A stretch of DNA of 64,000 nucleotides from an uncultured Clostridia bacterium (GTDB taxonomy: Bacteria; Bacillota; Clostridia; TANB77; CAG-508), in assembly GCA_947595555.1 (NCBI GenBank), contig CANQES010000001.1, positions 208 through 64,207 on the forward strand, read 5' to 3'. The notes beneath the pieces are model-generated. The model had not been told where the DNA came from. It saw only the letters and a program-made list of their open reading frames with translations, and did not search any database. Position numbers and translations under genes: made by a program. Positions 12,469 through 53,163 of the stretch are shown here, piece by piece (the stretch's first letter is position 1; each line of letters starts with the position of its first letter).

Positions 12469-13242
12469 TTATTTTCTGCATTGCATACCATTGTTATCAA
12501 TTGTATAGTTATCTAAGTAAATAAGCTCTGATACTGGAACAACTTCTAATCCTTTATTTTTTATATTTTTTAGAATACTATCTAAACTGTCTGCTGTATG
12601 TTCAGTTCCATTATGGCTTAATATAATATCTCCTGGTTTAATTTTTCCTTCCAATCGTGCCCACATTTGCTCATTTGTTAGTCCTGTGTAATCTAAAGTA
12701 TCTAAGCTCCATTGTATAGTGTAATATCCCTTGTCTTGTGCTGCTTGTATGACAGTATTATTATATTCTCCATAAGGTGCTCGATAAATTTTGGTTCTTT
12801 TTCCTGTTATGCTTTCAATTTTATCATTGCATTTTTCGATTTCTTCTATATTTTCTTCATAGCTTAGATTATTTACATGTGGATGTGTATTGCTATGACT
12901 TGCTATTTCATGACCTGCTTCGTGGATTTTTTTAGCTGCTTCTGGAAATTTTTCAATCCAATCTCCTACCATAAAGAAAGTTATTTTTACTTCATTTTTT
13001 TCTAATGTTTTTAAAATGTTATCAATATCATCTGCATTCCAAGCACAATTCATAGTAAAAGCTACTTTTTTCTCGCTGGTTTGTACACTATATATTGGCA
13101 ATAACTTTTGATTTGTACTTGATGTTGGTACTGTATTTCCTCCACTATTACTCAAATTACTTGCTATACAGATTAATAATACTACCGTTACTATTGATAC
13201 TAAATAAGTATATATTTTTTGTTTGTTTAATACGAAAAACAT
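12469..13242 (-). CDS. Polysaccharide deacetylase (NodB domain), secreted or membrane-anchored
   Basis: NodB motifs FTMNCAWN...FFMVGDW...HEIASHSNTHPH; N-terminal TM/signal segment. Confidence 0.8.
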   Translation of the reverse strand: MFFVLNKQKIYTYLVSIVTVVLLICIASNLSNSGGNTVPTSSTNQKLLPIYSVQTSEKKVAFTMNCAWNADDIDNILKTLEKNEVKITFFMVGDWIEKFPEAAKKIHEAGHEIASHSNTHPHVNNLSYEENIEEIEKCNDKIESITGKRTKIYRAPYGEYNNTVIQAAQDKGYYTIQWSLDTLDYTGLTNEQMWARLEGKIKPGDIILSHNGTEHTADSLDSILKNIKNKGLEVVPVSELIYLDNYTIDNNGMQCRK

Positions 13243-13406
13243 AAAAATCCCTCCAAGTTAAAGCTATTTTAATTGTATGCTTTTCCTTGGAGGAAAATTC
13301 TAAATGATATATTATTTTTCTTTTAATTTTTTTTATAATTTTAGTTATGCTTACATTTTCTTTATAATAAATCTAATATTAATTTTAATACTTACAAATT
13401 TCTTCA

Positions 13407-13432
13407 ACTTTCTACATTTTTTTCATATTATA
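13407..13432 (+). promoter_or_regulatory. Candidate mother-cell sigma (SigK/SigE-type) promoter upstream of the phage-split small gene: AC, about 15 nt, then CATATTATA
   Basis: CATATTATA at 13424-13432 fits CATAnnnTA. AC at 13407-13408. The spacer is 15 nt, slightly short. It lies 45 nt upstream of the ATG at 13478. Confidence 0.2.
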
Positions 13433-13477
13433 TATAAAGTAACATTTTAGTTACTAAAAAGAAAGGAATGATAAAAT

Positions 13478-13614
13478 ATGGAAATGGATGAAAAAAAATG
13501 TCCAGTTCTCGACGTTGATGGCGTTATTTCAGGAGGAAAACAATTTGATTTAGATATAACTTTGCCAGATGTTAATAAAAAAAAGTACCAAAAAGGTAAA
13601 TTAGAATTAACCTA
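13478..13614 (+). CDS. 5' fragment of a host gene split by prophage insertion. Beyond codon about 17 the reading frame is phage-derived
   Basis: RBS AAAGGAA then ATG. MEMDEKKCPVLDVDGVI joins in-frame, via the shared core, to YGVVKNCFKD... at 52774. Confidence 0.4.
13511..13540. other. attL of the prophage (core CGTTATTT at 13522-13529)
   Basis: An 8-nt stretch identical to 52767-52774. Joining the flanking host halves restores a continuous ORF. Confidence 0.5.
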
Positions 13615-13625
13615 ATCTACCTTTT
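13591..13625. terminator. Weak hairpin (AAAAGGTA ... TACCTTTT) at the prophage left end
   Basis: 8-bp inverted repeat with a long, roughly 19-nt loop and T-rich flanks. Confidence 0.25.
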
Positions 13626-13632
13626 TACTTTT

Positions 13633-14301
13633 TTATTTGTAATTTTGATTAATCATATAACCTTCTTTTCCATTTACTCTAATGCGTACTTTATCCCAAG
13701 TATAACCGTCTGCTTTTGCAACTCCTGCCTCTAATACATATAAAGTAGTATTAGGTATATACAAAACTGCTGTACTTCCTTTGGTAGTTGGTTTATTTCT
13801 TAAATTTGTATTTCTTGCTAATGTTTTTAATACTGGTGTACTAGTAGCTGGTTTACTAGGCTCTTTTACTTGATAATTGCTACTATTATATGTTCCTACT
13901 TTATTTGGTATCCCCATGTAATCTGCTGGATTACTATTATCTGCATATTTATTGCTTGTATTTCTTATTTCAAAATGTAAATGCTTTCCTGTACTATTTC
14001 CTGTACTTCCCATAATTCCTATTTTAGATACTCTGCTTACTTTTTGATTTACAGAAACGTTTATTTTTGACAAATGACAATACCAATGATATTTCCCATC
14101 AGCATCATTTTTTACTACTATAAAGTTACCATAGCTTTTATCATAGCCTGTCCTTGTTACTACTCCATCACAAGTTGCATATATTGTGTCATTGTCACAT
14201 ACAAGATCTATTCCTGTATGCCAACCACAAGCCCAACTCCCTTTTCTTTTGTATTCACATGTTACTTTAAATTCTCCTGTTAATGGTATATTTGTAGCCA
14301 T
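13633..14301 (-). CDS. Phage endolysin, M23 (LytM-type) peptidase with a C-terminal SH3-like targeting domain
   Basis: HxxxD ... GSTGNSTGKHLHFEI M23 motifs; adjacent to the holin. Confidence 0.75.
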   Translation of the reverse strand: MATNIPLTGEFKVTCEYKRKGSWACGWHTGIDLVCDNDTIYATCDGVVTRTGYDKSYGNFIVVKNDADGKYHWYCHLSKINVSVNQKVSRVSKIGIMGSTGNSTGKHLHFEIRNTSNKYADNSNPADYMGIPNKVGTYNSSNYQVKEPSKPATSTPVLKTLARNTNLRNKPTTKGSTAVLYIPNTTLYVLEAGVAKADGYTWDKVRIRVNGKEGYMINQNYK

Positions 14302-14304
14302 ATT

Positions 14305-14661
14305 CTATTCCTCCTTCTTATCATTATTTAATTTTTCTTTTAGTTTTTGTGGCATTTCTACACCCAATTTATCGCAATTTTCTGCTAAACTTGATATTTC
14401 CATCAAGCAAATATATCCTACTGCAAAATATAGTATTAGTTCTGTTCCTAGAGCAAATTTTGCCAATATTCCTATTAAAACATATACTAATTCTCCAAAT
14501 TTTTTAGATAATCCTTCCCTCATTTTTGCACTTTTAAAATCATTATTTTTCCATGCAATTATTACTCCTGTTGCTACATCTAAAACTATTAAAAATATTG
14601 GTGCTAGTATTGCCCACCATATATTTGTAAATTGTATGCTTTGCATTAATTCTTTCATCAT
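14305..14661 (-). CDS. Phage holin (3 TM)
   Basis: 118 aa with three hydrophobic helices and a charged C-terminus; immediately upstream of the endolysin. Confidence 0.65.
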   Translation of the reverse strand: MMKELMQSIQFTNIWWAILAPIFLIVLDVATGVIIAWKNNDFKSAKMREGLSKKFGELVYVLIGILAKFALGTELILYFAVGYICLMEISSLAENCDKLGVEMPQKLKEKLNNDKKEE

Positions 14662-18029: not shown

Positions 18030-19843
18030 TCTCCTTCGTGCATAATTATATTGTTATTTTTTAGTTTTAAAATTGGGAAATCATATCCTATTTCTATTTG
18101 CCTATTACGATTTAGTTTTTTATATTCTACTGTTTTTTCTTTACAATCAATCTCTACATATTCATCTTCTTTAAAATCATACTTAAATCTAACATCGTTT
18201 ATTGTTATTTCAACCTGTTCAAATATTGTTTTTTCTAAACGAATAATTGGTCTGCTTTCGATATTTCCTTCATTAAATATTTTTTCATCCGTATCAGCAA
18301 TATATATTCCTTCAAATTCACAACTTATCTCATCTGTACAGAATATATGTGTTGTTCCTTTATATGTATGTGCTGTATTTTTTATATTGTCCCATACTTC
18401 TTGTTGCTCTGGAGAATATGGTTCGATTATTTCATTTTGTAAATTATATTCAACTTCTACATTGTTGTTTTTAAAATATTCTTGAACTCCTGCTTTATCT
18501 AATGAACTAAGTTCACTTTTTGGAATCAAAAACGATATTCTTCTATCTTCACTATATGAAAAAACTCCATAAAAACTATCAAACCTATTTCCCCATGTGG
18601 TTGGCTTAAATTTATTCGACAAAACATTGTTTGTTTCGTCATTCTCTCCTATTTTTTTATTTGCTACAATAATAAATGGTCTTGCCCATGTACTATTTGC
18701 TTGATAATATGTCCAATTGCTTTCAGTTCCATCGAAAGTTCTTTTTTCTTTTATTTGATGTACTCCATCATCTGCTAAATAATCTCCTTTATGAAATACT
18801 TGTCCTTGTTTGGCTGGAAATGTAAAACATTGCTCTTGATAAGTTTCGAGCATTGTTTTAATTTCATCAAATGTTGCTCTTCCTTCAAATAATGCAACTC
18901 TTATTTTTAGATTGTTAAGTTCTGTTTCTTTTAATAGATTAAAACCTAAATATCCTAAAAAATCACCCGAATTATTTGTAAGTGTAACAGCTCTATTATC
19001 AAGACACGATGTAAAGCTACTTCCATCTTCTTTTGTAATATATAGATTCCCTGTGGTACCACTCCCTGAAATAATTTCATTATATAACGTATATACATGT
19101 CCTGTTTTAAATGGAATTTTTGGAGACTTAGCAGCAAAATCGGTTCTCCCTCCTGAAGTATTTGCTGTACCATTTAGTGTCCATATATTTCCATCTACAT
19201 TAACTTCTACATTTCTTACATTTGCAGAAAACTTGCTGTTAATATAAATGTTTTTCAAATTGTTATTACTTATCTTAAAATTAATATTCCCACAATTCTT
19301 TATTGGACTAGGATTTTCTGGACTAGGTTTTGTATCATCTGTCTCTTGCCATGTATTACCCTTAATAGTCAATTTTTTAAATCTTGCCCCTGTTCCATCT
19401 TCTATTGTTATATTTTCTCCAGTTATTTCCTTATCTTTTCTATCTTTAACTAAAATAAACTCATCATCAGCCTTATTCCAAAATGGATCTCTAATAAATG
19501 TAGTATCTATTACTCTTATACAGGCACTTCTTTCCGGTTCCAATTGACTGTAAAACCTAGCTATAGTTTTTCTTCCTTTATATTCAAACTCCCCTTCTCC
19601 ATTTAGCCATGCAAGTATATCATCAATTTTATTAATATTTAAACATTGAACATATATAGGTCTCTCTATACATGAATAACCTAAAGTATTAAATTCTGCT
19701 CCATCTCGTCCTTCTATTTCTACTGCCTCATATCTTTGTGATGCTTTTGCTATAAAATGTTCTTCTTCTTCAACTACTACTTGCATATCTTTGCTAGATA
19801 TTCCTTTAAATTTAAACATATTACACCACCTTGTATAATTCAT
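17990..19843 (-). CDS. Phage distal tail protein (Dit-like), long form
   Basis: Lies between the tape measure and tail fibre genes. 617 aa, overlapping its neighbours by a few codons. Confidence 0.55.
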   Translation of the reverse strand: MNYTRWCNMFKFKGISSKDMQVVVEEEEHFIAKASQRYEAVEIEGRDGAEFNTLGYSCIERPIYVQCLNINKIDDILAWLNGEGEFEYKGRKTIARFYSQLEPERSACIRVIDTTFIRDPFWNKADDEFILVKDRKDKEITGENITIEDGTGARFKKLTIKGNTWQETDDTKPSPENPSPIKNCGNINFKISNNNLKNIYINSKFSANVRNVEVNVDGNIWTLNGTANTSGGRTDFAAKSPKIPFKTGHVYTLYNEIISGSGTTGNLYITKEDGSSFTSCLDNRAVTLTNNSGDFLGYLGFNLLKETELNNLKIRVALFEGRATFDEIKTMLETYQEQCFTFPAKQGQVFHKGDYLADDGVHQIKEKRTFDGTESNWTYYQANSTWARPFIIVANKKIGENDETNNVLSNKFKPTTWGNRFDSFYGVFSYSEDRRISFLIPKSELSSLDKAGVQEYFKNNNVEVEYNLQNEIIEPYSPEQQEVWDNIKNTAHTYKGTTHIFCTDEISCEFEGIYIADTDEKIFNEGNIESRPIIRLEKTIFEQVEITINDVRFKYDFKEDEYVEIDCKEKTVEYKKLNRNRQIEIGYDFPILKLKNNNIIMHEGDCIVKVKRKDRWL

Positions 19844-22800
19844 CTTTTACTATTTTAGCAAAGCCATCTTCATCTAATGTAAATTTGCAATTTGTCAAAG
19901 CTTTTTCTATTGCATTTGCCATTTTGTTATAGTCAAAATCTAAATTAGATATTTCTGTTTGAGCATTACTTGATTTATTATCTTTGTTATTTATTTGCTT
20001 AAAATCATCTATTTTTTGTAAATCGCTAGACATTTCTTCTGTCATATTTTTTACAGATTTTATAAGTCTTGGTGAAGATTTATCTAAAGATTTTCCTAGT
20101 CCTTCAACCATATCTGGCATCCATTTTTCATACTCGCGTAATGGTCCTGTATCTGGTTTTGAAAAATGTAAAAATGAAGCTATTTTCCCAGCTAATCCAC
20201 TTAAAATATTAGTAAACCAATTGCTGTTTCCTCTCGATTGGATTCCTCTTCCTAGTCCATCAACCATGTCTCTTCCCCATGCATTACTATTATTTCTGGC
20301 AATGGCTTGCTTTGCCCTATTAGCTAAATTTCCTGCTTCATTTTGTATTTTTGTATCCATTTTTAAAGTATCGGATGAAGCTTTTATCTTTTCTTGCATT
20401 TTTTCAGGTAATTTTAGATTATCTTTGAATAATGATGTTGCTTGACTTCCTTTTTGTCCTAATGTTGTTGATAGTCCAGTATCTACAGCTATTATTCCTG
20501 TAGCTTCTTGGATTTTTTTTCTCGTCTCTGGAGGTAATTTAGAAATGCCTTCACTATATTTAGAATAACTTTGTTGTCCTGCATATTTCCATGCTTCTAT
20601 TTGTTTAGGAGTTAATTCTTTTACTGTTAATGTCTGTTCTGTTAAAGAATTTATAAGATTATTTAATTGCTGTTGATTTGTCGTTAATTGATTGTTTAAT
20701 ATTTGTGCTTGATATTGGTCATTATCAGCCTTTGCTTGTGCTAAACTTTCTTTTATAAATTTTACATATTCGCTTTGATTTACTATCTGTTCTTCTAAGC
20801 TTTCCTTTGTTTTTTCTTTTGCTGTTTCATATGATATTCCTATTTCAGTTACAGCCTTTTCTATTGCTTCAGCAGATCCTTCAACACTTGCTTTTTGCAA
20901 ACTCTCATAATCCTGTATAGTTTTGCCATATGAAGAAACTAATTCTGTTTGTTCTCCAATTTTTTGTGCAATACTACTGTATAAAATTTCTGCTTCCATT
21001 CTTTCCTTTGCATTTCCAGTAGCCATTGTATTAGTAGCCTCAACTAACTGTTTTTTTAAACCTATTAATGTTTCTGTTGCCTTAGCTTGTTCTTTTATTG
21101 CTGTTCCATATTCTTCTTGATAAGCATTTAATATTGCTTCTGCTTTTTTTACAGCTATAATTTTATCTATATTATCTTTTAATTCCTGGTATTGAGATAT
21201 AATATTTCCATTTAATTTGTACTCTGTACCTAAAGCATTATTTAATTGATTTAAGATTACTTTTGCTCTTGTTTCATATCCTTCTTTAACTTTCCCATTC
21301 TCATCTGTAATTTGTTTTAAATCTTCTGCTAGCTTTTCACTAATTTCAATTTCTGTCATACTACTAGATAATGATTCTTGTCTCGTTTTTGCTAATTCTT
21401 CCCAACTTTGTTTTTGATTATCCACTTCTTGTCTTAATCCATTTAATGATGCCTTTTGCTGTGTAGTAGCTACATGATGAGCTGTATATGCTGCAATTAA
21501 TGCACCTAAAGCTATTGTTGTAAGTCCTATTGGACTCGTTATTGCTGAAAATACATTTGCTAAACCATTTACTGCTGTAGATGTTGAAGTTACCGTTCCT
21601 CTTACAACTCCTATTGCTTGTGTAAATGCTCCTATACCCTCTATTGCTCCACCTACCGTTGATGTTACTTTTCCTAATATCATTAATAAAGGTCCAATTG
21701 CTGTAACTGCCAATCCTATATTCATTATAAATTCAACTTGTTCATCACTTAAATTGCTGAACCAATTTGCAAGTCCTTCTACTCCATCTATTAGTTTTGA
21801 AATATATGGCATTAACTTATTTCCTATTGTAACTCCTATATCTTTTAATTTATTTATTGCTATTGAAATTTTACTTTGTAAAGTTTCATATCTTTTATTA
21901 GCCTCATTTGTTAATGCTGTATTATCTTCCCATGCTTCATTTCCAAGTTTTATTGCTTTTGACATTACATCGCTTGCGTTAGCAGAACGTAATAATGCAT
22001 CTCTAAGTCTTGTTTCTGTTATCCCCATGTCATCTAAAATTTTAATTGCACTTTTTCCTTGTTTCCCACTTTTAGATAAACCTTCAACAAATTTCATAAT
22101 TGCATTTGTAGCATCTTGTTTAAAAGCTTTTTTAAAAACTTTTGAACTCATTCCTGCTACAGAAGCAAAATCTTTTAAACTATCTCCACCTTTTTCAACT
22201 GCTAATTGCATATTTATCATTACTTTTGAAAATGCTGTTCCTCCTGCTTGGGCTTCTAAACCTACTGAACTAAGTGCTGTTGCTAATGCCATTATTTGAG
22301 ATTGGCTCATTCCAACTTGTGTTCCTGCAGAAGCTAAATTCATTCCCATATTAGTTATTTCTGCCTCTGTTGTTGCGAAATTATTTCCCAAAGCAACAAT
22401 AACAGAACCTAATCTGTTAAAGTCTGATTGGCTCATCTTCGTTACGTTTGCAAATCTTGCTAATGTAGTAGCCGCTTCATCCGCTGACAAATTAGTTGCA
22501 TTGCCCATATTAATCATTGTTTTTGTAAATTCTAAAATATTATCTGTTTGTATTCCTAATTGTCCTGCAGCTTCTGCTACCGCACTTATTTCTGTTGTAC
22601 TAGCTGGAATTTCTTTTGACATATCCCTTATGCCTTGTTTTAATGCATTCATTTGTTCTTCGGTACCATCTACTGTCTTTTCTACACCAGTAAATGCTGA
22701 TTCAAAATCTATTGCTCCTTTAGCAGCAGTTAATAATGCTGTTCCTGTTGCAATGGAAAAAGCAGACAATTTTTTGCCTGCTCCTTCTATTTTATTTCCG

Positions 22801-23216
22801 CTATCTTTTACTTTACTTCCAAACTCTTCGATTTTTTTACCTGTATTGCCCAGTTGCATTTCTATATCTTTAATTTTTTGATTATAACTTTCCAGTTTTA
22901 CTTCTGCAGCTGTTAATTCATTTCTTTTCTTTTTGATAGCAGTTGTATTTTTGTTCTCTGCATTTTCTAAATCACTTAACTGCATTCTTAGTGTATTTAC
23001 TTTATCTTGCTGAATTTCATAAGCATTTTTCAAATATTCTTGTTCAGCTCTAAGCTTTTGCGTACTAGTAGTAGACTTGTCCCATTGTGCTTGAGTTAAT
23101 TTGAATTGATTGTAATTTTTAGTCATTTCTAAATTAATTTCTTGTAATGTTTTCTTAAAATCTACTGCTCCTTCTTGAGTAAACACTAATCCAACTCTTT
23201 TCAGTTCATCAGCCAA
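19821..23216 (-). CDS. Phage tail tape measure protein
   Basis: 1131 aa, coiled-coil rich, Gly/Ala-rich TM-like middle, TP901-like segment MGITETRLRDALLRSANASDVM. Confidence 0.85.
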   Translation of the reverse strand: MADELKRVGLVFTQEGAVDFKKTLQEINLEMTKNYNQFKLTQAQWDKSTTSTQKLRAEQEYLKNAYEIQQDKVNTLRMQLSDLENAENKNTTAIKKKRNELTAAEVKLESYNQKIKDIEMQLGNTGKKIEEFGSKVKDSGNKIEGAGKKLSAFSIATGTALLTAAKGAIDFESAFTGVEKTVDGTEEQMNALKQGIRDMSKEIPASTTEISAVAEAAGQLGIQTDNILEFTKTMINMGNATNLSADEAATTLARFANVTKMSQSDFNRLGSVIVALGNNFATTEAEITNMGMNLASAGTQVGMSQSQIMALATALSSVGLEAQAGGTAFSKVMINMQLAVEKGGDSLKDFASVAGMSSKVFKKAFKQDATNAIMKFVEGLSKSGKQGKSAIKILDDMGITETRLRDALLRSANASDVMSKAIKLGNEAWEDNTALTNEANKRYETLQSKISIAINKLKDIGVTIGNKLMPYISKLIDGVEGLANWFSNLSDEQVEFIMNIGLAVTAIGPLLMILGKVTSTVGGAIEGIGAFTQAIGVVRGTVTSTSTAVNGLANVFSAITSPIGLTTIALGALIAAYTAHHVATTQQKASLNGLRQEVDNQKQSWEELAKTRQESLSSSMTEIEISEKLAEDLKQITDENGKVKEGYETRAKVILNQLNNALGTEYKLNGNIISQYQELKDNIDKIIAVKKAEAILNAYQEEYGTAIKEQAKATETLIGLKKQLVEATNTMATGNAKERMEAEILYSSIAQKIGEQTELVSSYGKTIQDYESLQKASVEGSAEAIEKAVTEIGISYETAKEKTKESLEEQIVNQSEYVKFIKESLAQAKADNDQYQAQILNNQLTTNQQQLNNLINSLTEQTLTVKELTPKQIEAWKYAGQQSYSKYSEGISKLPPETRKKIQEATGIIAVDTGLSTTLGQKGSQATSLFKDNLKLPEKMQEKIKASSDTLKMDTKIQNEAGNLANRAKQAIARNNSNAWGRDMVDGLGRGIQSRGNSNWFTNILSGLAGKIASFLHFSKPDTGPLREYEKWMPDMVEGLGKSLDKSSPRLIKSVKNMTEEMSSDLQKIDDFKQINNKDNKSSNAQTEISNLDFDYNKMANAIEKALTNCKFTLDEDGFAKIVKDELYKVV

Positions 23217-26386: not shown

Positions 26387-27526
26387 CTAGGGTGTAACTG
26401 TTTCTGTTTTTACAATTGGTTTTAATGCTTCTAATTTTGTTATATCTAATACAACTGCATCATCATTAGATTTTAATCTTCCATTTCCATATGTTAAAAC
26501 AGCATATGTCCTTAATTGCTCTAAAAATTTATAGTGGTCACTAAAATCAATACCCATTCTAGAAATACCACAAGTATATTTCTTTGGAATATAGGCAATA
26601 GCTTTATTTTCTGGAACAGATGGACTTGCAACATATACAAAGTTTTTATAGTTATCTGCTTTAATATATCCGTTAAAACTTAATACATGTGTAGCTTTAT
26701 AAATTTTTGTATCTAATTCATTTTGATTTGCAATAATAACTATTGTATCTACATTTCTTTTTCCTTGTCTATTCAATGTTGGTAGAACCTTAGCACCAAA
26801 ACTATCTGGCCCTAAATCTGTAATTTCTATAGCTTTCTTATCTGGATATACACCCTCTTGTACAGAACCTTTTAAATCTTTTAATAGTCCAATTGGAGCA
26901 TCTTTTCCATTTCCTGCTATAATTCCTTCTTCGATTCCTTCTTCATTTACTTCCAATAAAACTGTTCTAACAAATTTATCTATCCATTTATATCCCATAT
27001 TAATTATGGCTTTTGGAACAAACATAAATGCAGAAAGTGATTTTACATCTAAATCTAATGATTCTACTCCTGCTTCTATTTTATCAATAATTGCTCGTGT
27101 TAATTTTCCCCAAGTAGCTTTACCACTTCTTTCAGATAAAAACCATTTTTGTACTCCTGCTGGGGCCCAATCTATATATTGAAATAATGGATGTGCTACT
27201 TTTAAATCTTCAAAAATATAACTAATTGTTGTTTCAGGTAAATAATCAATTTCTTTGCCTGTTAAACTTGTTGTATCTTCTTGTTTAATTGCTCTATCAA
27301 TCCATTGTTTTTCAGCTTCTGTTAAAGAACGTAAGCCAAATTTTTTGTCACTTTCTTTTGATGCAGAATATTCCTCAAATTCTTTTTGATATTGAGAAAT
27401 TACATTTGCATATTCTTGATCTACAATACTTTGTATTGTCTCAATAATTTTTTCTGATTTTTGCTCTGCTGGAGCATCATTTAGTTCCTTTACTAAATCT
27501 TCAATTGTTTTCTTTTCAATTTTCAT
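26387..27526 (-). CDS. Phage major capsid protein (HK97-like)
   Basis: 379 aa, immediately downstream of the prohead protease. Confidence 0.6.
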   Translation of the reverse strand: MKIEKKTIEDLVKELNDAPAEQKSEKIIETIQSIVDQEYANVISQYQKEFEEYSASKESDKKFGLRSLTEAEKQWIDRAIKQEDTTSLTGKEIDYLPETTISYIFEDLKVAHPLFQYIDWAPAGVQKWFLSERSGKATWGKLTRAIIDKIEAGVESLDLDVKSLSAFMFVPKAIINMGYKWIDKFVRTVLLEVNEEGIEEGIIAGNGKDAPIGLLKDLKGSVQEGVYPDKKAIEITDLGPDSFGAKVLPTLNRQGKRNVDTIVIIANQNELDTKIYKATHVLSFNGYIKADNYKNFVYVASPSVPENKAIAYIPKKYTCGISRMGIDFSDHYKFLEQLRTYAVLTYGNGRLKSNDDAVVLDITKLEALKPIVKTETVTP

Positions 27527-29575: not shown

Positions 29576-31306
29576 CTAACCATAAATAACTTCTTCATCT
29601 AATAATTCTTGTACACTCATTGCTGCCACAAAAGCCATAAAAGGATCGTTTTTTCTTAATTTTGGTTCTATTTTTTCATATTTTTTATTTCCATCTTTTC
29701 CATCTTTTACAGAAGTATTGTTAATTGCCCATCTCATTATTGCACTATTGCCTATATTTATATTTCCTTCAGCAAATGCTACTTCTATTCTTGGTGCAAC
29801 TATCGAAGCAATACTTGCTGGATATCTAATCATTCTTACTAAACCATATGGGTTTTGCTTTGTTTCAAGTGAAATTCCAAATTCCTCAAAAATTTCTTTC
29901 AAAAAATTATATCTATATGTATCTAAAACAATTTTTTTTACATTATATTTTTGCATTTCTGAAAGAATCCAAAGTATTATTTTTCTTCCATCTATACTTT
30001 CATTATCTGTAATTTCAAAGTCTTGATATCCTTCTTGTCCTATATTATCAAATGGAAATTTAATGTCATTATAAAATTTATTTTTTTTACATATCCATGT
30101 CTTACATCTCCAAATATATTCTCCATCTTTCTTAAATAAAAAACCTGCTGAAGCAAAATCTCTTAATGATGCAAAATCTATACCTACAATTGCATTTCTG
30201 CCTTTTATATCGCCTGTTGCTCTTTCTATTTTCTCATCAGCATTATCATAAGATGCTTTTATTATTAAATCCCATTCTGCAACAGCTTGTTCTTCATCTT
30301 GTTGAGGCAAATTCATTCTTTTTGCATAAAATTCTACTCTATAAGATTTCTGTTTTTTCATTTTTAGGTAATCTCTTATCAATTCATTTTTAAGAACTGG
30401 CATATATCGTAGACTAGGATTTGCTTGACACCAAACAGTTATATCTATATCATTCTTATCATTAGTTCTTAGAAATTTCTCCATTGGAATATCTACTGTT
30501 ATTAGGTCATTTATTTTATATATAATAGGTAAAAGACCTAAAGAATTATATTCTCCATTAAGTACTAGTTTTGCCATAGATAATTTTTCATCTAATGGTC
30601 CATCTCTAATTGTACCATTTGTAGTAATAGTTACCGTTCTTGCATGTTTTATTTTTCCTAAGCCAGAACTATATACATTTATTTGTTTATAATCTTCATA
30701 AGCATGCAATTCATTAAAAATAATCATTCCTGTTTGTTTTCCGTCTTTTGTTTTTGCATTAGCAGTATTATATCTTAAAATAGAATGCGTTATTTTATTT
30801 ATTACTTCTGTTTTATTCCAATAAAAATATTTTTTCATTATACTCTTATTGTTTTCCAACATGTTATAAACAATATTAAATGAATTTAAAGCTTGTTCTT
30901 CTGAAGTCGCAACTATATCTATATGATAATTTTTTACTCCATAATAATGCGTTTGTAAAAAATTTGCTAATGGCATTATCATTCCATCTTTTCCATTTCC
31001 TCTAGCCATAACAATTAAAATATCTGGAAATATTACTATATCTGGGTTTTCTTTTTCATACATAAAAAACAATGCATAAGCAAATTTTTGATATGGAAAT
31101 AGTTTATAATACCATTTTTCACAATATTTTACAGCTTTTTTGAATGTTTCTTCATCAAAAAAAACATCATCTCTCGATAATGTTGGTTTTACTATATTTT
31201 TAATTAGTAATTTTATTTCATCATCAGTTTCTTTGGGGTTCTCTTCTACAAATTTTATATATTCTTCTATTTCATTACAACAAATCATCCTCCCCTTCAC
31301 CACCAC
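29576..31306 (-). CDS. Phage terminase large subunit
   Basis: 576 aa with a Walker A-like VMARGNGKDGMI segment; sits downstream of terS. Confidence 0.8.
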   Translation of the reverse strand: MVVKGRMICCNEIEEYIKFVEENPKETDDEIKLLIKNIVKPTLSRDDVFFDEETFKKAVKYCEKWYYKLFPYQKFAYALFFMYEKENPDIVIFPDILIVMARGNGKDGMIMPLANFLQTHYYGVKNYHIDIVATSEEQALNSFNIVYNMLENNKSIMKKYFYWNKTEVINKITHSILRYNTANAKTKDGKQTGMIIFNELHAYEDYKQINVYSSGLGKIKHARTVTITTNGTIRDGPLDEKLSMAKLVLNGEYNSLGLLPIIYKINDLITVDIPMEKFLRTNDKNDIDITVWCQANPSLRYMPVLKNELIRDYLKMKKQKSYRVEFYAKRMNLPQQDEEQAVAEWDLIIKASYDNADEKIERATGDIKGRNAIVGIDFASLRDFASAGFLFKKDGEYIWRCKTWICKKNKFYNDIKFPFDNIGQEGYQDFEITDNESIDGRKIILWILSEMQKYNVKKIVLDTYRYNFLKEIFEEFGISLETKQNPYGLVRMIRYPASIASIVAPRIEVAFAEGNINIGNSAIMRWAINNTSVKDGKDGNKKYEKIEPKLRKNDPFMAFVAAMSVQELLDEEVIYG

Positions 31307-40968: not shown

Positions 40969-41493
40969 TTATATTCTACACTTGCAAAACTTTCTTTTGT
41001 TACGCCATTCTTTTTGATATTTTAAAATTCTTTTCTTATTTTTTTGATAATATATTCTTGCATATTTATTTCTTCCTTCTCTTGTAGAATGATTTATTTT
41101 TTCTTGTTTGTATTTTCTAAAAGGCTCTTGTTTTAATACTTTAAATCTATGTATTACATTTTCTTTAGGGGTAACCCACTCAAGATTATCAACACAGTTA
41201 TTGGTTTTATCTCCATCTTTATGATTGATTTCTAAAATTGGTTTCATTATAAAATTTTCTGCAACTAACTTATGAATACTTATTCTTTTCATTTTATTAT
41301 TTTTATATAAATTTACATATTCATATCCTATATTGCTTTTACATGGTTTCAATCTCTTTTTATATCTAAATAAACTTCTTACTTTTCCTAAATTGCTAAC
41401 TTGATATAAACCTTCATATCCTTTAACATCTTTCCAAACTTCCTCATATTCTCCAACTTCAATTTTATCTTCCATAATTGCCTCCAAATACAC
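40969..41493 (-). CDS. HNH homing endonuclease (NUMOD4 plus HNH_3)
   Basis: WKDVKGYEGLYQVSNLGKVRS (NUMOD4) and NHKDGDKTNNCVDNLEWVT (HNH). Confidence 0.7.
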   Translation of the reverse strand: MYLEAIMEDKIEVGEYEEVWKDVKGYEGLYQVSNLGKVRSLFRYKKRLKPCKSNIGYEYVNLYKNNKMKRISIHKLVAENFIMKPILEINHKDGDKTNNCVDNLEWVTPKENVIHRFKVLKQEPFRKYKQEKINHSTREGRNKYARIYYQKNKKRILKYQKEWRNKRKFCKCRI

Positions 41494-42281: not shown

Positions 42282-43046
42282 TTATAAAACATCAGCTTCC
42301 TCCTTTTTTATAAATCTTCCTTTACAATCTCTTTTTAAATTTGTTTTTCTGAAATGTCCTAAATTGCCTTTATAAATTAATTTATCATCTCTATACCCTT
42401 TATCATATCTATCTATAAGAACATGTGCTTTTATTCCGTACTGTTTTTCAAATTCATAAGCAGACTTTTTTTCTTCATATATTACAATTTTTCTAGTTAC
42501 TCTTTTATTATTTGCTTGTTCTTTCCACGTTGCCCATCTACAATTATTGGGTTCATAATTTCCATCTACATCAATTCTATCTATTGTTAATTTAGATGTA
42601 TATCCATTATTTATTGCCCAATTATAGAAATTCATGAAATTTGTTAACCAATCTTCACATACTTTTATTCCTCTTTTTCCATAGTTTTTATAAAATTGAT
42701 TATTTTTATTATTGCATCTGTCTTTCATATCAGCCCATATTTGATAAATTCTTGTTTTTGACAATCCATGTGTTTTTGGCTTTCCCCAGAATTTACTTAA
42801 ATTTCTTAATTCACATTCTTTTCTATAACAACCACAACTTGTCGTATCTCCTCGTGTCAAATATGTTGTAGGAACTATTTTTTTATTTCCACAATCACAT
42901 AAACATAGCCATAATTTTTTCCTATTTTTATCAGTTTCTACATATTTTATTACCGTCAATCTTCCAAATCGTTTATTAGTTAAATCTACTCCTTTTATTT
43001 TTATCACTCCTTTGCACATTTTCCGTGTTAATTGTGGATAATTCAT
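42282..43046 (-). CDS. Phage zinc-finger DNA-binding / endonuclease-associated protein
   Basis: W.C.CDCG...SCGC plus Y.IW..M..RC...YKNYGKRGIKVCEDW motifs, common in phage HNH/AP2-like proteins. Confidence 0.4.
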   Translation of the reverse strand: MNYPQLTRKMCKGVIKIKGVDLTNKRFGRLTVIKYVETDKNRKKLWLCLCDCGNKKIVPTTYLTRGDTTSCGCYRKECELRNLSKFWGKPKTHGLSKTRIYQIWADMKDRCNNKNNQFYKNYGKRGIKVCEDWLTNFMNFYNWAINNGYTSKLTIDRIDVDGNYEPNNCRWATWKEQANNKRVTRKIVIYEEKKSAYEFEKQYGIKAHVLIDRYDKGYRDDKLIYKGNLGHFRKTNLKRDCKGRFIKKEEADVL

Positions 43047-44285: not shown

Positions 44286-44672
44286 TTATTCCTCCTTTAA
44301 AGAACTTTTTCCTATAATTTTTATAAATTCTTCTCTTGTATGAGTTTTCTCAAATTCTTTTTGAGTTTCTAGCTTTAATTGTTTAAGTATTTCTTCGTTT
44401 GAATGACATTCTCTGCATAACATTTTTACAAATCCATTTAATATACTTCTTTCTCTGTTACTACCTCCAAATACCTCATGAGGATCTAAATGCTTAAACT
44501 TTCTATGACAATACTCACATTCTCCATATTTAACAATTTTTTTGTCTCTTTGTCTTTCTAGTTTTGCTAACTTACTACTTTTCTTTTTAATCTCTTTGAC
44601 TTTTCTTTGTTTCTCTTTGACTTTTGGTTTTGGGCAAGGATAAAAGCTATTACTTAAATCTTTTATTATCAT
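44286..44672 (-). CDS. Putative HNH-type nuclease
   Basis: CEYCHRKF...HEVFGGSNRERS...N...CRECH. Confidence 0.45.
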   Translation of the reverse strand: MIIKDLSNSFYPCPKPKVKEKQRKVKEIKKKSSKLAKLERQRDKKIVKYGECEYCHRKFKHLDPHEVFGGSNRERSILNGFVKMLCRECHSNEEILKQLKLETQKEFEKTHTREEFIKIIGKSSLKEE

Positions 44673-47529: not shown

Positions 47530-48024
47530 TTTTATTTCCTCCTTTCAAACTTCTTAATCTATAATTCATTTTAAATAATGTTAATAACATCTGTTCATGT
47601 ACTTTTTTCCATTCTGCAATATCAATGCATTCATTTAATAACTCTTGATAATGTTTAATCATTTGTTTTTCCTCCTATATTTTATTTGTAAACTGTTATG
47701 TGCATAAATCCATATACTAACATGCTTGTCCACATTGCATAAACACTCATGTATAACATTGTTTTTAAAAATATTTTTTTAAGCTTTCTCATTTGTTTCC
47801 CTCCTTCTTATTTTTCTTTTACCTTTGCTATTATTTCTATATTATTTTTTTCTGCTACTATATCTGCTAATGTTTGAAAAAATATTTGTGCGTGTTCCAG
47901 CGTAAATTTTGTCTTATCTTTATTTTCCAAGTTCACCACCTCTCTTAAAAATATTCATATAACTTGTACTTCTTTCTAATTTATTTTGTGTGGTATGTCG
48001 TATTTTTGTTTATTACTTGCAATT

Positions 48025-48287: not shown

Positions 48288-48515
48288 TTATTTTTTATCA
48301 TTTGTAGAACTTATTGTACGTTGTGTTGCTAAAAAAATTTGTACAATAGGTACTCCAAGAATTTCAGCAAATACTGATTTAGCTTTATCACTAGGACTTC
48401 TCTCTCCTCTTTCTATCATTGAGATATAATCCTTTGAATATCCGGATTTCCTTGCCAGCTGTTCTTGTGTTAATTTACTTTTTATCCTTAATTCCTTAAA
48501 AGATAATTTTTTCAT
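48288..48515 (-). CDS. Cro-like XRE-family HTH regulator
   Basis: LTQEQLARKSGYSKDYISMIERGERSPS; divergent from the CI-like gene. Confidence 0.75.
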   Translation of the reverse strand: MKKLSFKELRIKSKLTQEQLARKSGYSKDYISMIERGERSPSDKAKSVFAEILGVPIVQIFLATQRTISSTNDKK

Positions 48516-48556
48516 TTTTCTATCTCCTTTCGTACTTTTTGTTCGTTTGTAATTGA

Positions 48557-48585
48557 ATTATATAGTACAATATGTTCTTTGTCAA
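48557..48585 (-). promoter_or_regulatory. Early (cro-side) promoter TTGACA-17-TATAAT on the minus strand, with an operator-like repeat in its spacer
   Basis: Reverse complement of 48580-48585 is TTGACA; reverse complement of 48557-48562 is TATAAT. GTACAATATGTTC sits at 48565-48577. Confidence 0.45.
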
Positions 48586-48645
48586 TACTTTTTTGAAATT
48601 TTTTCTTAAAAATTTTTAAAACTATTGAAACTCTAAGAAAGAAAT

Positions 48646-48658
48646 TTGTACAAATTGT
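48646..48658. promoter_or_regulatory. Second copy of the operator-like repeat GTACAA(A/T)(T/A)TGTTC
   Basis: GTACAAATTGTTC, compared with GTACAATATGTTC at 48565; just upstream of the CI-side -35. Confidence 0.35.
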
Positions 48659-48666
48659 TCTGTTTT

Positions 48667-48695
48667 TCTTTACAAAACGTACTATTTGTTATATA
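48667..48695 (+). promoter_or_regulatory. Repressor-side promoter TTTACA-17-TATAAT
   Basis: TTTACA at 48667-48672 and TATAAT at 48690-48695; the RBS AAAGGAA precedes the ATG at 48720. Confidence 0.45.
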
Positions 48696-48719
48696 ATGTT
48701 TTTATCAAATTAAAAAGGA

Positions 48720-49076
48720 ATGATTTATTTGAATAGATTAAGAGAATTAAGATTAGAAAAAGGATTATTACAATCTGACATATCAAAAATTATAAATAAA
48801 GGAGAAAGAACGGTAGGATTTTACGAAACTGGAGAAAGAGATATGGGAACAGAAACCTTATCAATTTTATCTAATTTTTTTAATGTTTCTATAGATTACT
48901 TGTTAGGAAAATCAGATATAAGAAACCCTGAAAAAATTGATCATGATAAAATAAATATTGGTTTAAGTAAAAAAGATTATAACCCACCTACCCCAGAGCA
49001 GCAAGAAAAAATCGAAGAATTTGCAAAATTTGTACTAAAAGATAATTTAAAAGATAAGGAAGATAAAAATAAATGA
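48720..49076 (+). CDS. CI-like XRE-family HTH repressor (ImmR-type, no S24 peptidase domain)
   Basis: LLQSDISKIINKGERTVGFYETGER HTH; followed by an ImmA-like gene. Confidence 0.7.
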   Translation: MIYLNRLRELRLEKGLLQSDISKIINKGERTVGFYETGERDMGTETLSILSNFFNVSIDYLLGKSDIRNPEKIDHDKINIGLSKKDYNPPTPEQQEKIEEFAKFVLKDNLKDKEDKNK

Positions 49077-49496
49077 ATTTAGAAAATTTATATGATTTAG
49101 CTGAAAAAGAAAATGTTAAAATATATGATTTTTATTTTGATGAAGATATAAATGGAATGTTTTTAAACTATGATAAGTTAAATGCAATTGCTTTAAACTA
49201 TAAAAATATTAGAAATAGCCAAGAAGAAAAATGTGTATTATCTGAAGAACTAGGTCACTATTATATGGATGCAACCTATAATTATACTAATATTGATAAA
49301 ATTATCTTTGACAAACAAGAATATCGTGCTAGAAAATGGAGTTATTATGCGCTTATTCCTTTTGAAAAATTAAAATTAGCCATCTTAAATCGGAATTGAT
49401 ACTCTTTATAAATTAGCAGAATATTTTGAAGTTACAGAAGAATATATGAAAAATGCATTAAAATTTTATGAAGGAAAATATGGTCTTATTTTTTAA
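49073..49496 (+). CDS. ImmA/IrrE-family metallopeptidase-like anti-repressor, apparently frameshifted near 49385-49400
   Basis: SEELGHYYMD (HEXXH-like). After the stop at 49399 a second frame encodes the typical C-terminus ...IDTLYKLAEYFEVTEEYMKNALKFYEGKYGLIF. Confidence 0.5.
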
Positions 49497-49536
49497 TTAA
49501 AAAATTTTAATATATATAATAAAGGGGATTTTTAAA

Positions 49537-50136
49537 ATGAAAAATGAAAACGAATTAGAAACTAAAACAATTAAAAATAATTTTTTTAAAGACAAGAAAA
49601 ACATTGCTATAATAGTACTTTTATTCTTATTGTTTTGTGTTTCTTGTGCTTATATCATGCCCACAGATGTTTCTAGATATGAAAATGAACTTACTGAACT
49701 CAATAATCAAATAACATATTTACAAAGTCAAATTAACAATTTAAAAACAGAAAATGCTACTTTAAAAGAAGAAAAAACAAAATTAGAAAAAGATAAAAAT
49801 AATTTGGAAGAACAAAAAAATACTCTTGAAAGCGAAAAACAAGAATTAAATAAAAAAATAGATGAATTAGCTAAAGCTAAAGAAAAAGAAGAAAATTCCG
49901 CAACTTTAGCTAAAAGTTCTTCTTCTCAATTGTCAACAAGTGCTACAGTAACCAATTCTCCTTCTACAAATACGAGTTCATCAGCCAACAACAATAATTC
50001 ACAAATGGTATGGGTTGGGAATACTGGTACAAAGTATCATAAACAAAATTGTAGAACTTTAAAAGGTAACGGACACCAAATAACACTACAACAAGCACTT
50101 GCTGAAGGTAGAGAAGCTTGTAAAGTATGTTATTAA
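49537..50136 (+). CDS. Moron: membrane-anchored coiled-coil protein with a C-terminal Cys/His motif
   Basis: One N-terminal TM helix, a long coiled coil, an S/T-rich linker, and a C-terminal YHKQNCRTL...EACKVCY. Confidence 0.4.
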   Translation: MKNENELETKTIKNNFFKDKKNIAIIVLLFLLFCVSCAYIMPTDVSRYENELTELNNQITYLQSQINNLKTENATLKEEKTKLEKDKNNLEEQKNTLESEKQELNKKIDELAKAKEKEENSATLAKSSSSQLSTSATVTNSPSTNTSSSANNNNSQMVWVGNTGTKYHKQNCRTLKGNGHQITLQQALAEGREACKVCY

Positions 50137-50241
50137 TTTTTTAAATAATAATATATTCCCCATCAACTTAATAGAAAATTTATAAATAAAATATATCAAT
50201 TATTAATATTTAAAAATATAAAAAATAAAAGGAGAATAATT

Positions 50242-50703
50242 ATGCAATGTAAAAAATGTAAAAAAGAATGTATGGAAAATGAACTGACAAATGGTATATG
50301 TGCAGATTGTTTAATTGAAAACAATAAAGGAACTGTAAATACAAATTCAAATGCAAATGCTATAGGTTGCTTGGTAGCTTTTATATTCATAGGTGCAATT
50401 TGTTTTTTTATTTGGAATGGAATTGGCAGTATTTTTAATGACACTAAAACAGACGATAATTCAGGAACTCCAAGTAATATAGAATTGATGTCTTATGCCC
50501 AAACTGTATTAGATGATAATTTAAGTAATCCAAAATATTCAAGTAATAAAAATGACTATAATTTTGTAAAAACAGGTTTAAGATATAAAATAGAAGGAAA
50601 AGTTAATAATGAAAAATTTTGGCTAATAATACAATTTACAGATGACACATATAAAGAATATGATTTAATATCTTTGCAAATTGGAAACAAAACAATTAAA
50701 TAA
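50242..50703 (+). CDS. Moron: zinc-ribbon membrane protein
   Basis: N-terminal CKKCKK...CADC, one TM helix and an extracytoplasmic domain. Confidence 0.35.
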   Translation: MQCKKCKKECMENELTNGICADCLIENNKGTVNTNSNANAIGCLVAFIFIGAICFFIWNGIGSIFNDTKTDDNSGTPSNIELMSYAQTVLDDNLSNPKYSSNKNDYNFVKTGLRYKIEGKVNNEKFWLIIQFTDDTYKEYDLISLQIGNKTIK

Positions 50704-51010: not shown

Positions 51011-51309
51011 TATGCTATTTACTTAATCTCTTTATTATGTAATAAAGTATTATAAGTTTTAGCACGTCTAACCAGTTTTTCAATGAAAAACACCTCCTTT
51101 CTACCTTTTGGAGAAAGGCACGTTTACTATAACATTATTAGTTCTATTTTGTCAAATTTGATAATCAAAAATAGATAATGTATTCTGCGACCAAACTTCA
51201 TACATTACCTATTCTCTATCTACTTGTATAAGTAGTTTATAGTTGTATTATACAATATTAAACCTCTTTATACAAGTACCAAAAATTTGTTTAAGGAGGT
51301 TATTTTTGC

Positions 51310-52725
51310 GTGAAAGATAATATAAATAATAATATGAATAATTTTAATAAAAAAGCTGAAGAAGTTGCACTCTACATCCGTGTCTCAACAGAGGAACAAG
51401 CCTTAAATGGAGATAGTCTAAGAACACAAAGAGAAGAATTAACTAAATATGCTCTTGCCAATGGTTTTCATATTTATAATATTTACGAAGACGATGGCTT
51501 TTCTGCTACTAATCTTAAAAGACCTGCATTGCAAAGAATGTTAAAAGACGTAGAACAAAATAAGATAAATAGAATACTTATAACAAAACTTGATCGTCTA
51601 TCTCGTGGAGTTAGGAACTATTATAAAGTTTTAGATGTTTTAGATGAACATGATGTATTTTGGCAAACTATATTTGAAAAATACGACAGTTCAACAGCCA
51701 ATGGTAGACTACATATTAATATTATGCTTTCTGTTGCAGAAAATGAATCCGCTCAAACCTCTGAAAGAATTAGGAGTGTCTTTAAAACAAAAATACAAAG
51801 TAAAGAATTGATAAGTGGCAAAATTCCTATTGGCCTTAAAAAAGATGATAAAAGAATGATAATAGATGAAGACAAAAAACAAGTTATTTTAGATGCTTTT
51901 CAGTTTTATAAAGAAACAATTAGTGCATATCAAACTTTTCAAAAATTAGACCTAAAATACCCAGAATTACAATTAAATTACATGAGAACTTATCGAATTT
52001 TAACAAACAAACTATATGTAGGAATTAAAGAAACTCGATATGGAGATATAGAAAACTTTTGTCCTGCAATAATAGACATTAATACATTTGAAAATACTCA
52101 AAAAATGTTGAAGAAAAATGCCAGAAAACAAAGTCATAATAATTCTGGTGGATATATTTTTCAAGGCATGTTAAAATGTGCTGAATGCGGATATACTTTG
52201 GGTGGCAAATTTTATGCTAAGAATTTAGAAAGTTCTAAATATTACTATATCTGCAAACGTCATCATTTATCTTTGAAATGCAGTTGTAATACGAATTTTA
52301 ATGAACAAAAAATTGAGCAGAAACTTTTAAAACAATTTATTCCTCAACTTGAAAAGTATATTTCTAATTATGAATACAAACAAAATAACGTTAAAAAACT
52401 TAATTTTTCAAAGGAAATTAATTCTGTTGAATCTAAATTAATTAAATTAAAAGATTTATATATAAGAGATTTAATTAGAATAGATGATTATGAAAATGAT
52501 TATAAAAAATATGTTTCTCAGTTGGAAAATCTATACAAAGAACAAGAAAGCATTGAGACAGACAAGCCAAAAAACAACATAGACATATTAAAATCATTCT
52601 TAAACCAAGATATTTTAACTATATATAATAATTCTTCTAGGTTAGAAAAAAGACGATTATGGTTATCTGTAATTGATTATATTGTAATAGATAAGGATTA
52701 TAACATGCAAATATTTTTTATTTAA
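51310..52725 (+). CDS. Large serine recombinase (phage integrase)
   Basis: Resolvase N-domain VALYIRVSTEEQ...; recombinase domain; zinc ribbon CAECGYTLGGKFYAKNLESSKYYYICKRHH; GTG start after AAGGAGG. Confidence 0.9.
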   Translation: MKDNINNNMNNFNKKAEEVALYIRVSTEEQALNGDSLRTQREELTKYALANGFHIYNIYEDDGFSATNLKRPALQRMLKDVEQNKINRILITKLDRLSRGVRNYYKVLDVLDEHDVFWQTIFEKYDSSTANGRLHINIMLSVAENESAQTSERIRSVFKTKIQSKELISGKIPIGLKKDDKRMIIDEDKKQVILDAFQFYKETISAYQTFQKLDLKYPELQLNYMRTYRILTNKLYVGIKETRYGDIENFCPAIIDINTFENTQKMLKKNARKQSHNNSGGYIFQGMLKCAECGYTLGGKFYAKNLESSKYYYICKRHHLSLKCSCNTNFNEQKIEQKLLKQFIPQLEKYISNYEYKQNNVKKLNFSKEINSVESKLIKLKDLYIRDLIRIDDYENDYKKYVSQLENLYKEQESIETDKPKNNIDILKSFLNQDILTIYNNSSRLEKRRLWLSVIDYIVIDKDYNMQIFFI

Positions 52726-52726
52726 C

Positions 52727-53100: not shown

Positions 53101-53117
53101 CAAATTAGAATATCAAG

Positions 53118-53148
53118 AAAGGATTTGGGGACGGCCCCATAATCCTTA
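53118..53148. repeat. REP-like palindromic repeat, copy C
   Basis: AAAGGATTTGGGGACGGCCCCATAATCCTTA. Confidence 0.8.
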
Positions 53149-53163
53149 TTTTTTTCAAAAAGA

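Follow-up and report, generated by a model that had tools for sequence, protein, structure and literature searches.

When a prophage splits a gene of its host, is that gene merely a landing site, or is the prophage a switch that is removed in the mother cell so that the gene is rebuilt during sporulation? This question is raised by a 64,000-nt stretch of DNA from an uncultured Clostridia bacterium (contig CANQES010000001.1; hereafter the window, in which all coordinates are 1-based), where a temperate siphovirus prophage of 39,185 bp with a large serine integrase splits a 145-codon host gene between codons 30 and 31. An earlier note on this DNA, made from the sequence alone, had proposed that the prophage is an intervening element of the skin or SPbeta kind, inserted in a mother-cell-expressed gene for a Cys-rich protein resembling those of the spore coat. 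That the gene is split and can be restored exactly is accepted here on evidence given below. That SPbeta-like excision in the mother cell restores the gene during sporulation is the reading we favor, at a probability of roughly 0.42; taken as a whole, the sporulation gene-intervening element reading is plausible and partly supported.

The open reading frame (ORF) of the split gene starts with an ATG at 13478, leaves host-like sequence after 30 codons and enters foreign DNA. In the lysogen it reads on into the phage to a stop at 13615, giving a 45-residue peptide, and the remainder of the gene is found directly downstream of a 471-residue recombinase gene (51310-52725), 39 kb from the 5' fragment. 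The crossover is a GA dinucleotide (13568-69 and 52753-54). Joining the two fragments there yields a protein of 145 residues that is colinear with all homologues and restores their invariant motif, ITLP/EDNRDVIYG. A prophage-free relative (locus L001), about 95% identical over 636 aligned nt, provides the empty site and contains the exact predicted 20-mer, ACTTTGCCAGAAGACAATCG; free attP palindromes in related phage contigs, such as ATGGTACTTTTTAATATAGACAGATGTTAATATTAAAAAGTACCAT, also agree with the GA crossover. Since the homologues are colinear only with the GA join, and since both the empty site and the free attP forms exist, we accept the split and its exact restoration, which bears out the earlier claim that a prophage with a large serine recombinase interrupts a gene here. 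A more eye-catching motif occurs at both ends of the element (AAAAAAGTACCAAAA and TTTTGGTACTTTTTT) and holds a GTAC palindrome (13585 and 52734). It was rejected as the junction: the product would have 157 residues, with 12 extra ones that are absent from 22 of 22 aligned homologues. A mobile element thus interrupts the coding sequence of a real, conserved host gene. The lysogen chromosome holds only a 45-residue stump and a promoterless 3' fragment, so that precise excision by the integrase is the sole way to restore the gene.

The attachment sites are those of a large serine integrase, being short and dyad-symmetric about a crossover of 2 bp, with no long duplicated core. The element ends are 24-nt imperfect inverted repeats, and the reconstructed attP, a palindrome of about 50 bp (GGTAC-T5-N8-ACAGA/TGT-N8-A5-GTACC), is symmetric around GA at 50 of 62 positions and has only CAGA in common with attB, the DNA that codes for the invariant LPEDNRD motif. 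The integrase itself has its three domains above the respective cut-offs (PF00239 at 117 bits, PF07508 and PF13408), its R24-V25-S26-T27 motif is invariant in 20 of 20 relatives, and its closest solved relative is the catalytic domain of TP901-1 integrase. The integrase gene (int) ends 27 nt before the attR core; with the palindromic arms and the attP forms of relatives, this shows that the element encodes the serine recombinase acting on its own ends. Int and the 3' gene fragment share one reading frame (52723-52757), parted only by the int TAA stop; this is not kept in relatives (locus L081, for example, has another frame) and is probably coincidental.

Relatives of the integrase are very common in gut metagenomes (1,572 matches, the top ones about 80% identical); in viral contigs a single-sequence scan found nothing and a profile scan was needed. 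At about 19 loci, integrases 58-92% identical to this one are fused to an orthologue of the split gene at the same codon, and these loci include integrases of about 60% identity whose host orthologue is itself only 58-63% identical. The palindromic attP form was found at seven loci, with free forms from viromes and metagenomes, and no other integration target was seen among integrase relatives with enough downstream sequence. Three junction ORFs (P0089, P0174 and P0186), which carry a phage-encoded WYF[FV]LL prefix, represent further lysogens. To judge from these sequences, the phage lineage is active and specialized on this one site.

The case for a sporulation role starts with the promoter of the split gene. 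The AC-N15-CATATTATA motif that the earlier note had read as a SigK-type promoter lies where it was claimed, at 13407-13432, and a ribosome-binding site is present between it and the ATG. A single AC-N15-17-CATAnnnTA match means nothing in DNA this rich in AT, the prophage alone holding 6 against about 10 expected, so significance can come from conservation only. Eighty orthologue loci were kept for locus comparisons and 78 were used for the promoter. The block TTCAACTTTCTACATTTTTCTTCATATGATATA is near-invariant upstream of intact orthologues, while the neighboring intergenic DNA diverges. [C/A]ATAnnnTA stands at the same place in 76 of the 78 loci, its first base being C in 66 of 70 distinct sequences, and the full CAAC-N15/16-CATAnnnTA is present in 61 (N15 in 23, N16 in 38); most of the other loci have AC or CA in the corresponding position. 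When motif, ribosome-binding site and ORF were sought together in about 0.85 Mb of host DNA from 80 genomes, 67 of the 77 matches preceded a split-gene orthologue. A distant homologue (P0289, at locus L148) has CAC-N16-CATAATATA, and a sigma-70 scan called no site on the plus strand at the split-gene promoter.

Promoters of sigE and sigK have the -10 element CATA..TA in common and are told apart by the -35, ATA in sigE promoters and AC in sigK promoters (PMC3789822, PMC517825); at the split-gene promoter both the CATAnnnTA and the AC of the sigK type are found. The divergent neighbor, a gene for a pdaB-like deacetylase, can serve as an internal control for this assignment, as its own upstream sequence, GAATTTT-N14-CATACAAT, appears to be a canonical sigE promoter and is conserved in about 40 loci. 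The textbook sigE consensus is kmATATT-14-CATACAhT. On the strength of the conserved AC-N15/16-CATAnnnTA, the site of the distant homologue, the empty sigma-70 scan and the sigE promoter of the pdaB-like neighbor, transcription of the split gene most probably takes place in the mother cell, and sigK is a better fit than sigE. The two conserved promoter types also indicate that this uncultured clade follows the mother-cell promoter code known from B. subtilis. The pdaB-like gene is present in 46 of the 80 loci, mostly just upstream of the split-gene orthologue; the genes that lie between the two in other loci encode small membrane proteins and are uninformative. As the earlier note had recognized, the window also contains spoIIGA (61337-62218) and a sigE-type sigma gene (60635-61315), next to ftsZ, and a spoVB-like gene is found as well.

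The restored protein contains 13 Cys, of which 9, and not the 11 counted earlier, fall within the last 40 residues. It has 1,927 database relatives, the top ones full length and 71-94% identical, none of them with a name; 261 are in one-genome-per-species contigs, and a profile search of 1.8 billion representatives enlarges the family to 351 clusters. All 80 kept loci are from metagenome-assembled genomes (MAGs) of uncultured gut Clostridia of rabbit, mouse and human ('Clostridium sp. CAG:343', for example). Distant members keep the N-terminal domain and have long D/H/C/K-rich tails; one is from a Herbinix MAG, and names or functions sought among the homologues, that one included, returned 'hypothetical protein' only. 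An AlphaFold2 model gives an eight-stranded beta-sandwich core (predicted local distance difference test score about 80-90 over residues 40-100) and a disordered Cys-rich tail. This fold agrees with the transthyretin or carboxypeptidase-regulatory-like domain that had been proposed, as far as a beta-sandwich goes; the assignment to that family has only Pfam scores below threshold behind it (13-19 bits against cut-offs of 27-32, with 13.2 against a gathering threshold of 32.3 for PF13620, CarboxypepD_reg, and 19.2 against 27 for the NOMO1-like family). No signal peptide or membrane segment was found in the sequence. The composition, the cytoplasmic synthesis and the variable, low-complexity tail would agree with the coat-protein class. 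The label 'spore coat protein' would draw on the promoter, the composition and the absent signal peptide only. The split gene is under strong purifying selection, identity being 70-94% over about 1,900 sequences, so its loss should be costly.

A further element of the argument comes from what the relatives of the integrase carry with them. Their phage backbones are mosaic, and the only non-integrase ORF common to them is the one at 47808-47939, which encodes 43 residues. Every int locus that extends for about 1 kb or more upstream of int has it, at a distance of 1.0-3.3 kb and in the opposite orientation, as a 33-residue version in the group of about 60%-identical integrases (33-50 residues overall), and it is absent from all 80 prophage-free host loci. 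With backbones and lysogeny and recombination modules that differ, int, attP and this small ORF seem to move together as a cassette for this attB. We regard the ORF as a candidate recombination directionality factor (RDF), a function proposed from its co-occurrence with int only; a PHROG search with it and the neighboring small ORFs returned nothing. Directly upstream lies a conserved block that always reads AAGTACAAAC-TAT-NN-GAATAAAG-...-GGAGAGGTGG. Its invariant core, rACAAAC, resembles a SpoIIID box, a consensus that was not found in the literature searched. The reverse complement of the block holds TTTGTACTT, a sequence similar to the motif of the outer attP arm, TTGGTACTT. As for the modules that vary, several loci with integrases about 80% identical (L149, L152, L083 and related ones) have lysogeny modules unrelated to 48288-50703 of the window, namely an S24/LexA-like repressor with or without DUF3800 where the window has an ImmR/ImmA pair; for recombination, RecT/DUF1351 stand against Cas4-exonuclease/NinB in the window.

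Several results weigh against the sporulation reading, and the first of these concern the gene itself. The fused protein has no match above cut-off in Pfam-A and NCBIfam, and none to a coat or exosporium family; no homology to CotY/Z, CotJ, Coat_F, CdeC, CdeM, BclA or CsxA was detected, and the comparison with known Cys-rich coat proteins suggested in the earlier note has thus come out negative. A profile search of the PDB was empty, and Foldseek against the PDB gave only generic beta-sandwiches like those of carbohydrate-binding modules (CBMs), at template modelling scores of 0.4-0.5. With Pfam below threshold, NCBIfam empty and the structural matches generic, homology neither confirms nor refutes a coat protein. 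The spacer between AC and CATA is 15 nt in the window and 15-16 nt in the orthologues, against 17 nt in mapped sigK promoters of C. difficile (PMC3789822 supplement). The SigK-type promoter stands as regards its -10 and -35 elements, which are conserved across loci, and its spacing is shorter than the C. difficile norm; further sigK-type promoters, sought in the 80 host loci as spacing controls, formed no other consistent family. A weak sigA promoter can also be read at the same place (TTCAAC-17-TATTAT, 8 of 12 matches), and the region upstream of the Herbinix homologue has no clear CATAnnnTA.

From these points it could be argued that the gene has nothing to do with sporulation: a weak sigA promoter or an operator would lie upstream, the product would be a vegetative, Cys-rich beta-sandwich protein binding metal or carbohydrate, and the link to sporulation would be coincidental. 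We consider this distinctly improbable. The promoter has C of CATA in 66 of the 70 distinct sequences and AAC rather than TTG at -35, on a strand where the sigma-70 scan is empty; an extracellular CBM-like protein would need the signal peptide that is lacking here. The family has been seen only in Clostridia MAGs and the window carries sporulation genes, the gene stands back-to-back with a pdaB-like gene that has a sigE promoter, and even a distant homologue has a sigK-type site.

The remaining adverse results concern excision, which no feature of the sequence links to sporulation. No conserved sigE or sigK motif precedes int or the RDF candidate across relatives, and sporulation control of either by sigE, sigK or SpoIIID was not found, a weak negative given that the RDF assignment is itself inferred. 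The scan for SigE/SigK-type elements upstream of the integrase in related elements, as the earlier note had advised, revealed a conserved sigA-like promoter instead (TTGTAT or TTGAAA ... TATTATACA). The RDF-candidate block has no CATAnnnTA and neither AC nor ATA at -35 distance, so it is not a recognizable sigE or sigK promoter. Within the prophage, sigK-like and sigE-like motifs are not enriched (6 against about 10 expected, and 2 against 0.8). Decayed, skin-like remnants, with int and att sites and attL within 4 kb of int, were sought at this site and none was found. Finally, the phage is fully equipped and has been seen in free form, so that ordinary induction alone can explain the excised forms. 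Two individual candidates for mother-cell promoters in the prophage were examined and dismissed: at CATACATTA (51199), before int, relatives have T or G in place of the C, and the match is an arm of an inverted repeat, while the sigE-like match at 39090 on the minus strand straddles an ORF start, two such matches against 0.8 expected being at chance level.

Such results would suit plain insertional inactivation, or negative lysogenic conversion, in which the LPEDNRD-coding stretch is simply a reliable, conserved attB, lysogens make spores without a dispensable surface protein, and the prophage leaves only on ordinary induction, ending in lysis. Among large serine integrases, insertion into ORFs unconnected with development is frequent, phiC31, Bxb1 and TP901-1 being examples. 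A complete, active phage with a CI/Cro/ImmA switch, free attP forms, a sigA-like int promoter, no conserved mother-cell motif before int or the RDF candidate, no enrichment of such motifs in the prophage and no domesticated remnants are all as this explanation would have them, and we take it seriously, at somewhat less than an even chance. It accounts less well for the long specialization of the lineage on one mother-cell gene, among orthologues only 58-63% identical, which suggests a low-cost site, when strong purifying selection on the gene implies that losing it should cost. Nor would it lead one to expect that the RDF candidate comes with a conserved control block of its own, whatever the early operon around it, and sporulation-linked excision is what all experimentally tested analogues show.

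Indeed, the tested serine-recombinase elements in mother-cell genes, skin, SPbeta, vfbin, vrin, gin and yin being examples, were all excised during sporulation or in a growth-phase-dependent manner (PMC4191935, PMC5595907, PMC10747680). SPbeta and skinCd make their recombinase constitutively and place the RDF alone under sporulation control (PMC5595907), so a sigA-like int promoter is compatible with excision in the mother cell. The mother-cell-type promoter, the conserved and exclusive target, the portable control element of the RDF candidate and the tested analogues are the grounds on which we favor an SPbeta-like role for the prophage. Such a role can be pictured as follows. The split gene would very probably be transcribed in the mother cell by RNA polymerase with sigK, and possibly with sigE, and its product, made in the cytoplasm, would very probably be a structural component of the spore surface, a Cys-rich protein in which a beta-sandwich core is joined to a variable K/D/E/C-rich tail. 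The integrase may be made constitutively from its sigA-like promoter, as in SPbeta/spsM and skinCd/sigK, an arrangement that we prefer, and excision could be triggered by production of the small co-inherited protein encoded at 47808-47939. Excision in the mother cell might then rebuild the gene there only, the forespore genome keeping the prophage.

The closest parallel is SPbeta in spsM of B. subtilis, with its integrase SprA and RDF SprB: it is likewise an active, full-size temperate phage with a large serine integrase, its integrase is constitutive, and a small RDF from the early region decides on excision (PMC4191935, PMC5499854). SPbeta splits a late mother-cell gene for a spore-surface function, as the present phage putatively does. 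Where SPbeta interrupts the gene of an enzyme of polysaccharide synthesis, the target here encodes an uncharacterized Cys-rich protein; the host belongs to an uncultured clade of gut Clostridia, and no sigE or sigK promoter was found before the RDF candidate. SPbeta measures 134 kb, against 39 kb for the present phage, and its RDF has 58 residues. TP901-1 of Lactococcus, with its RDF Orf7, resembles the present system in having a large serine integrase, a palindromic attP and a short crossover; it is unconnected with sporulation and does not integrate into a developmental gene. Its RDF is small and comes from an early gene of the lytic operon; at 33-50 residues the present candidate is shorter still, and a PHROG search revealed no relationship.

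Other systems share single aspects. The skin element in sigK (B. subtilis SpoIVCA; C. difficile CD1231/CD1234) is a serine-recombinase element in a mother-cell gene, and its excision restores the ORF (PMC5025042). Skin is a defective prophage in a regulator needed for late sporulation, whereas the present phage is complete and seems to have a structural target; spoIVCA of B. subtilis is driven by sigE and SpoIIID, unlike int here with its sigA-like promoter. The yin element in yabG of Clostridium botulinum V73 is likewise clostridial and prophage-like, interrupts a coat-related gene that depends on sigK, and has a putative small RDF predicted in silico only, as here (PMC10747680); yin is unique to one strain, whereas the present pairing of integrase and attB recurs in dozens of metagenomic loci and diverged hosts. 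In Listeria, the A118-like prophage phi10403S splits comK by means of a serine integrase and is excised reversibly without lysis ('active lysogeny', PMC10747680), the condition being intracellular growth and not sporulation, with no terminally differentiated cell involved. Phages and mobile elements in mother-cell genes (skin, SPbeta, vfbin, vrin, gin, yin) are a known kind; what is new here is the target family, the uncultured gut Clostridia as hosts, how broad the phage lineage is and how small the candidate RDF.

If excision is timed by sporulation, phage 'regulatory switches', so far listed for a few cultured strains of Bacillus and Clostridium, would be present in an abundant, uncultured group of gut Clostridia as well, an unnamed Cys-rich putative coat protein would be added to their targets, and the RDF would be among the smallest proposed for a large serine integrase. 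One may go further and imagine that the portable unit of the lineage (integrase, palindromic attP and an RDF of 33-50 residues with its control block), with RDF synthesis coupled to the mother-cell program through the SpoIIID-like core of that block, allows fully lytic-competent phages to act also as developmental switches that set the composition of the spore coat in many gut species, which we think unlikely. Even if the sporulation hypothesis fails, integrase, attP, attB and candidate RDF make up a well-defined and naturally widespread recombination unit that could serve genome engineering. The features of the locus are collected in Table 1.

Table 1. Features of the split gene, the prophage and their surroundings, in window coordinates.
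Feature	Coordinates	Strand	Details
pdaB-like polysaccharide deacetylase gene	12469-13242	-	Divergent neighbor of split gene
Predicted promoter of pdaB-like gene	13272-13300	-	GAATTTT (13300-13294), N14, CATACAAT (13279-13272); canonical sigE type
Predicted mother-cell-type promoter of split gene	13404-13432	+	TCAAC (AC 13407-08), 15-nt spacer, -10 CATATTATA (13424-32)
Stem-loop in 5' untranslated region	13438-13455	+	AGTAAC-ATTTTA-GTTACT; near predicted transcript 5' end
Split gene, 5' fragment	13478-13569	+	Codons 1-30 and first two bases of codon 31
attL	13545-13595		Host half-site, GA (13568-69), phage P' arm TGTTAATAAAAAAAAGTACCAAAA
Temperate siphovirus prophage	13570-52754		Structural and lysis genes on minus strand; lysogeny module and integrase on plus strand
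Hairpin with T-run just inside attL	13589-13627	-	17-pair stem; 1 found against 0.1 expected
M23 endolysin	13633-14301	-	PHROG match
Holin	14305-14661	-	PHROG match
Tape measure	19821-23216	-	PHROG match
Major head	26387-27526	-	PHROG match
TerL (large terminase)	29576-31306	-	PHROG match
HNH-endonuclease-like genes (3)	40969-41493, 42282-43046, 44286-44672	-	Early/replication region
Candidate RDF	47808-47939	-	43-residue ORF MENKDKTKFTLEHAQIFFQTLADIVAEKNNIEIIAKVKEK; co-occurrence with int
Conserved block	47936-47978	-	AAGTACAAgtTATATGAATA...AGAGAGGTGG; about 30 nt, directly upstream of candidate RDF
Cro-like helix-turn-helix protein	48288-48515	-	Lysis-lysogeny switch
CI/ImmR-like repressor	48720-49076	+	Lysis-lysogeny switch
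ImmA-like metalloprotease	49073-49399	+	Lysis-lysogeny switch
Predicted integrase promoter	51224-51251	+	sigA-like; TTGTAT, 16-nt spacer, TATTAT
Large serine integrase	51310-52725	+	471 residues; Resolvase, Recombinase, Zn_ribbon_recom domains
attR	52729-52780		Phage P arm TTTTGGTACTTTTTTCTACTAACA, GA (52753-54), host half-site
Split gene, 3' fragment	52755-53100	+	Remaining base of codon 31 through stop; encodes beta-sandwich core, Cys-rich tail

By its gene content the element appears to be a complete temperate siphovirus, evidently active and no skin-like relic; further PHROG matches in the prophage include genes for tail fibre, major tail, protease, portal, exonuclease, NinB and HNH proteins. 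The hairpin just inside attL overlaps the P' arm and has T-runs on both sides. It is predicted to terminate the phage lysis operon, and its T-runs could also stop read-through from the host promoter into the prophage.

The stem-loop in the 5' untranslated region of the split gene has a stem of 5-6 bp that is kept by compensatory changes over 51 loci, with variants such as GTAAC/GTTAC, CAAC/GTTG and GTAGC/GCTAT. Double-sided changes were counted in 40 cells, against 13 +/- 5 in shuffles, and pairing was found in 81% of cells, against 25-30% when the partner was slid by 1-2 columns. It is probably a 5' stabilizer of the mRNA rather than a protein operator. At the other end of the gene, none of the 80 orthologue loci shares the downstream synteny (pynP, rnhB). 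A GC-rich inverted repeat with T-runs (GGATTTGGGGACGGCCCC / GGGGCCGTCCCCAAATCC, 53112-53195), resembling a bidirectional terminator, separates the split gene from the gene for pyrimidine-nucleoside phosphorylase that converges on it. As for int, an S24/LexA-like repressor gene precedes it in other relatives. Upstream of the int promoter are two inverted repeats, TAGATAATGTAT...ATACATTACCTA (51170-51212) and CTACTT-GTAT-AAGTAG (51220-51236), which are conserved, being common to loci L082, L087 and L090; they could act as operators or terminators.

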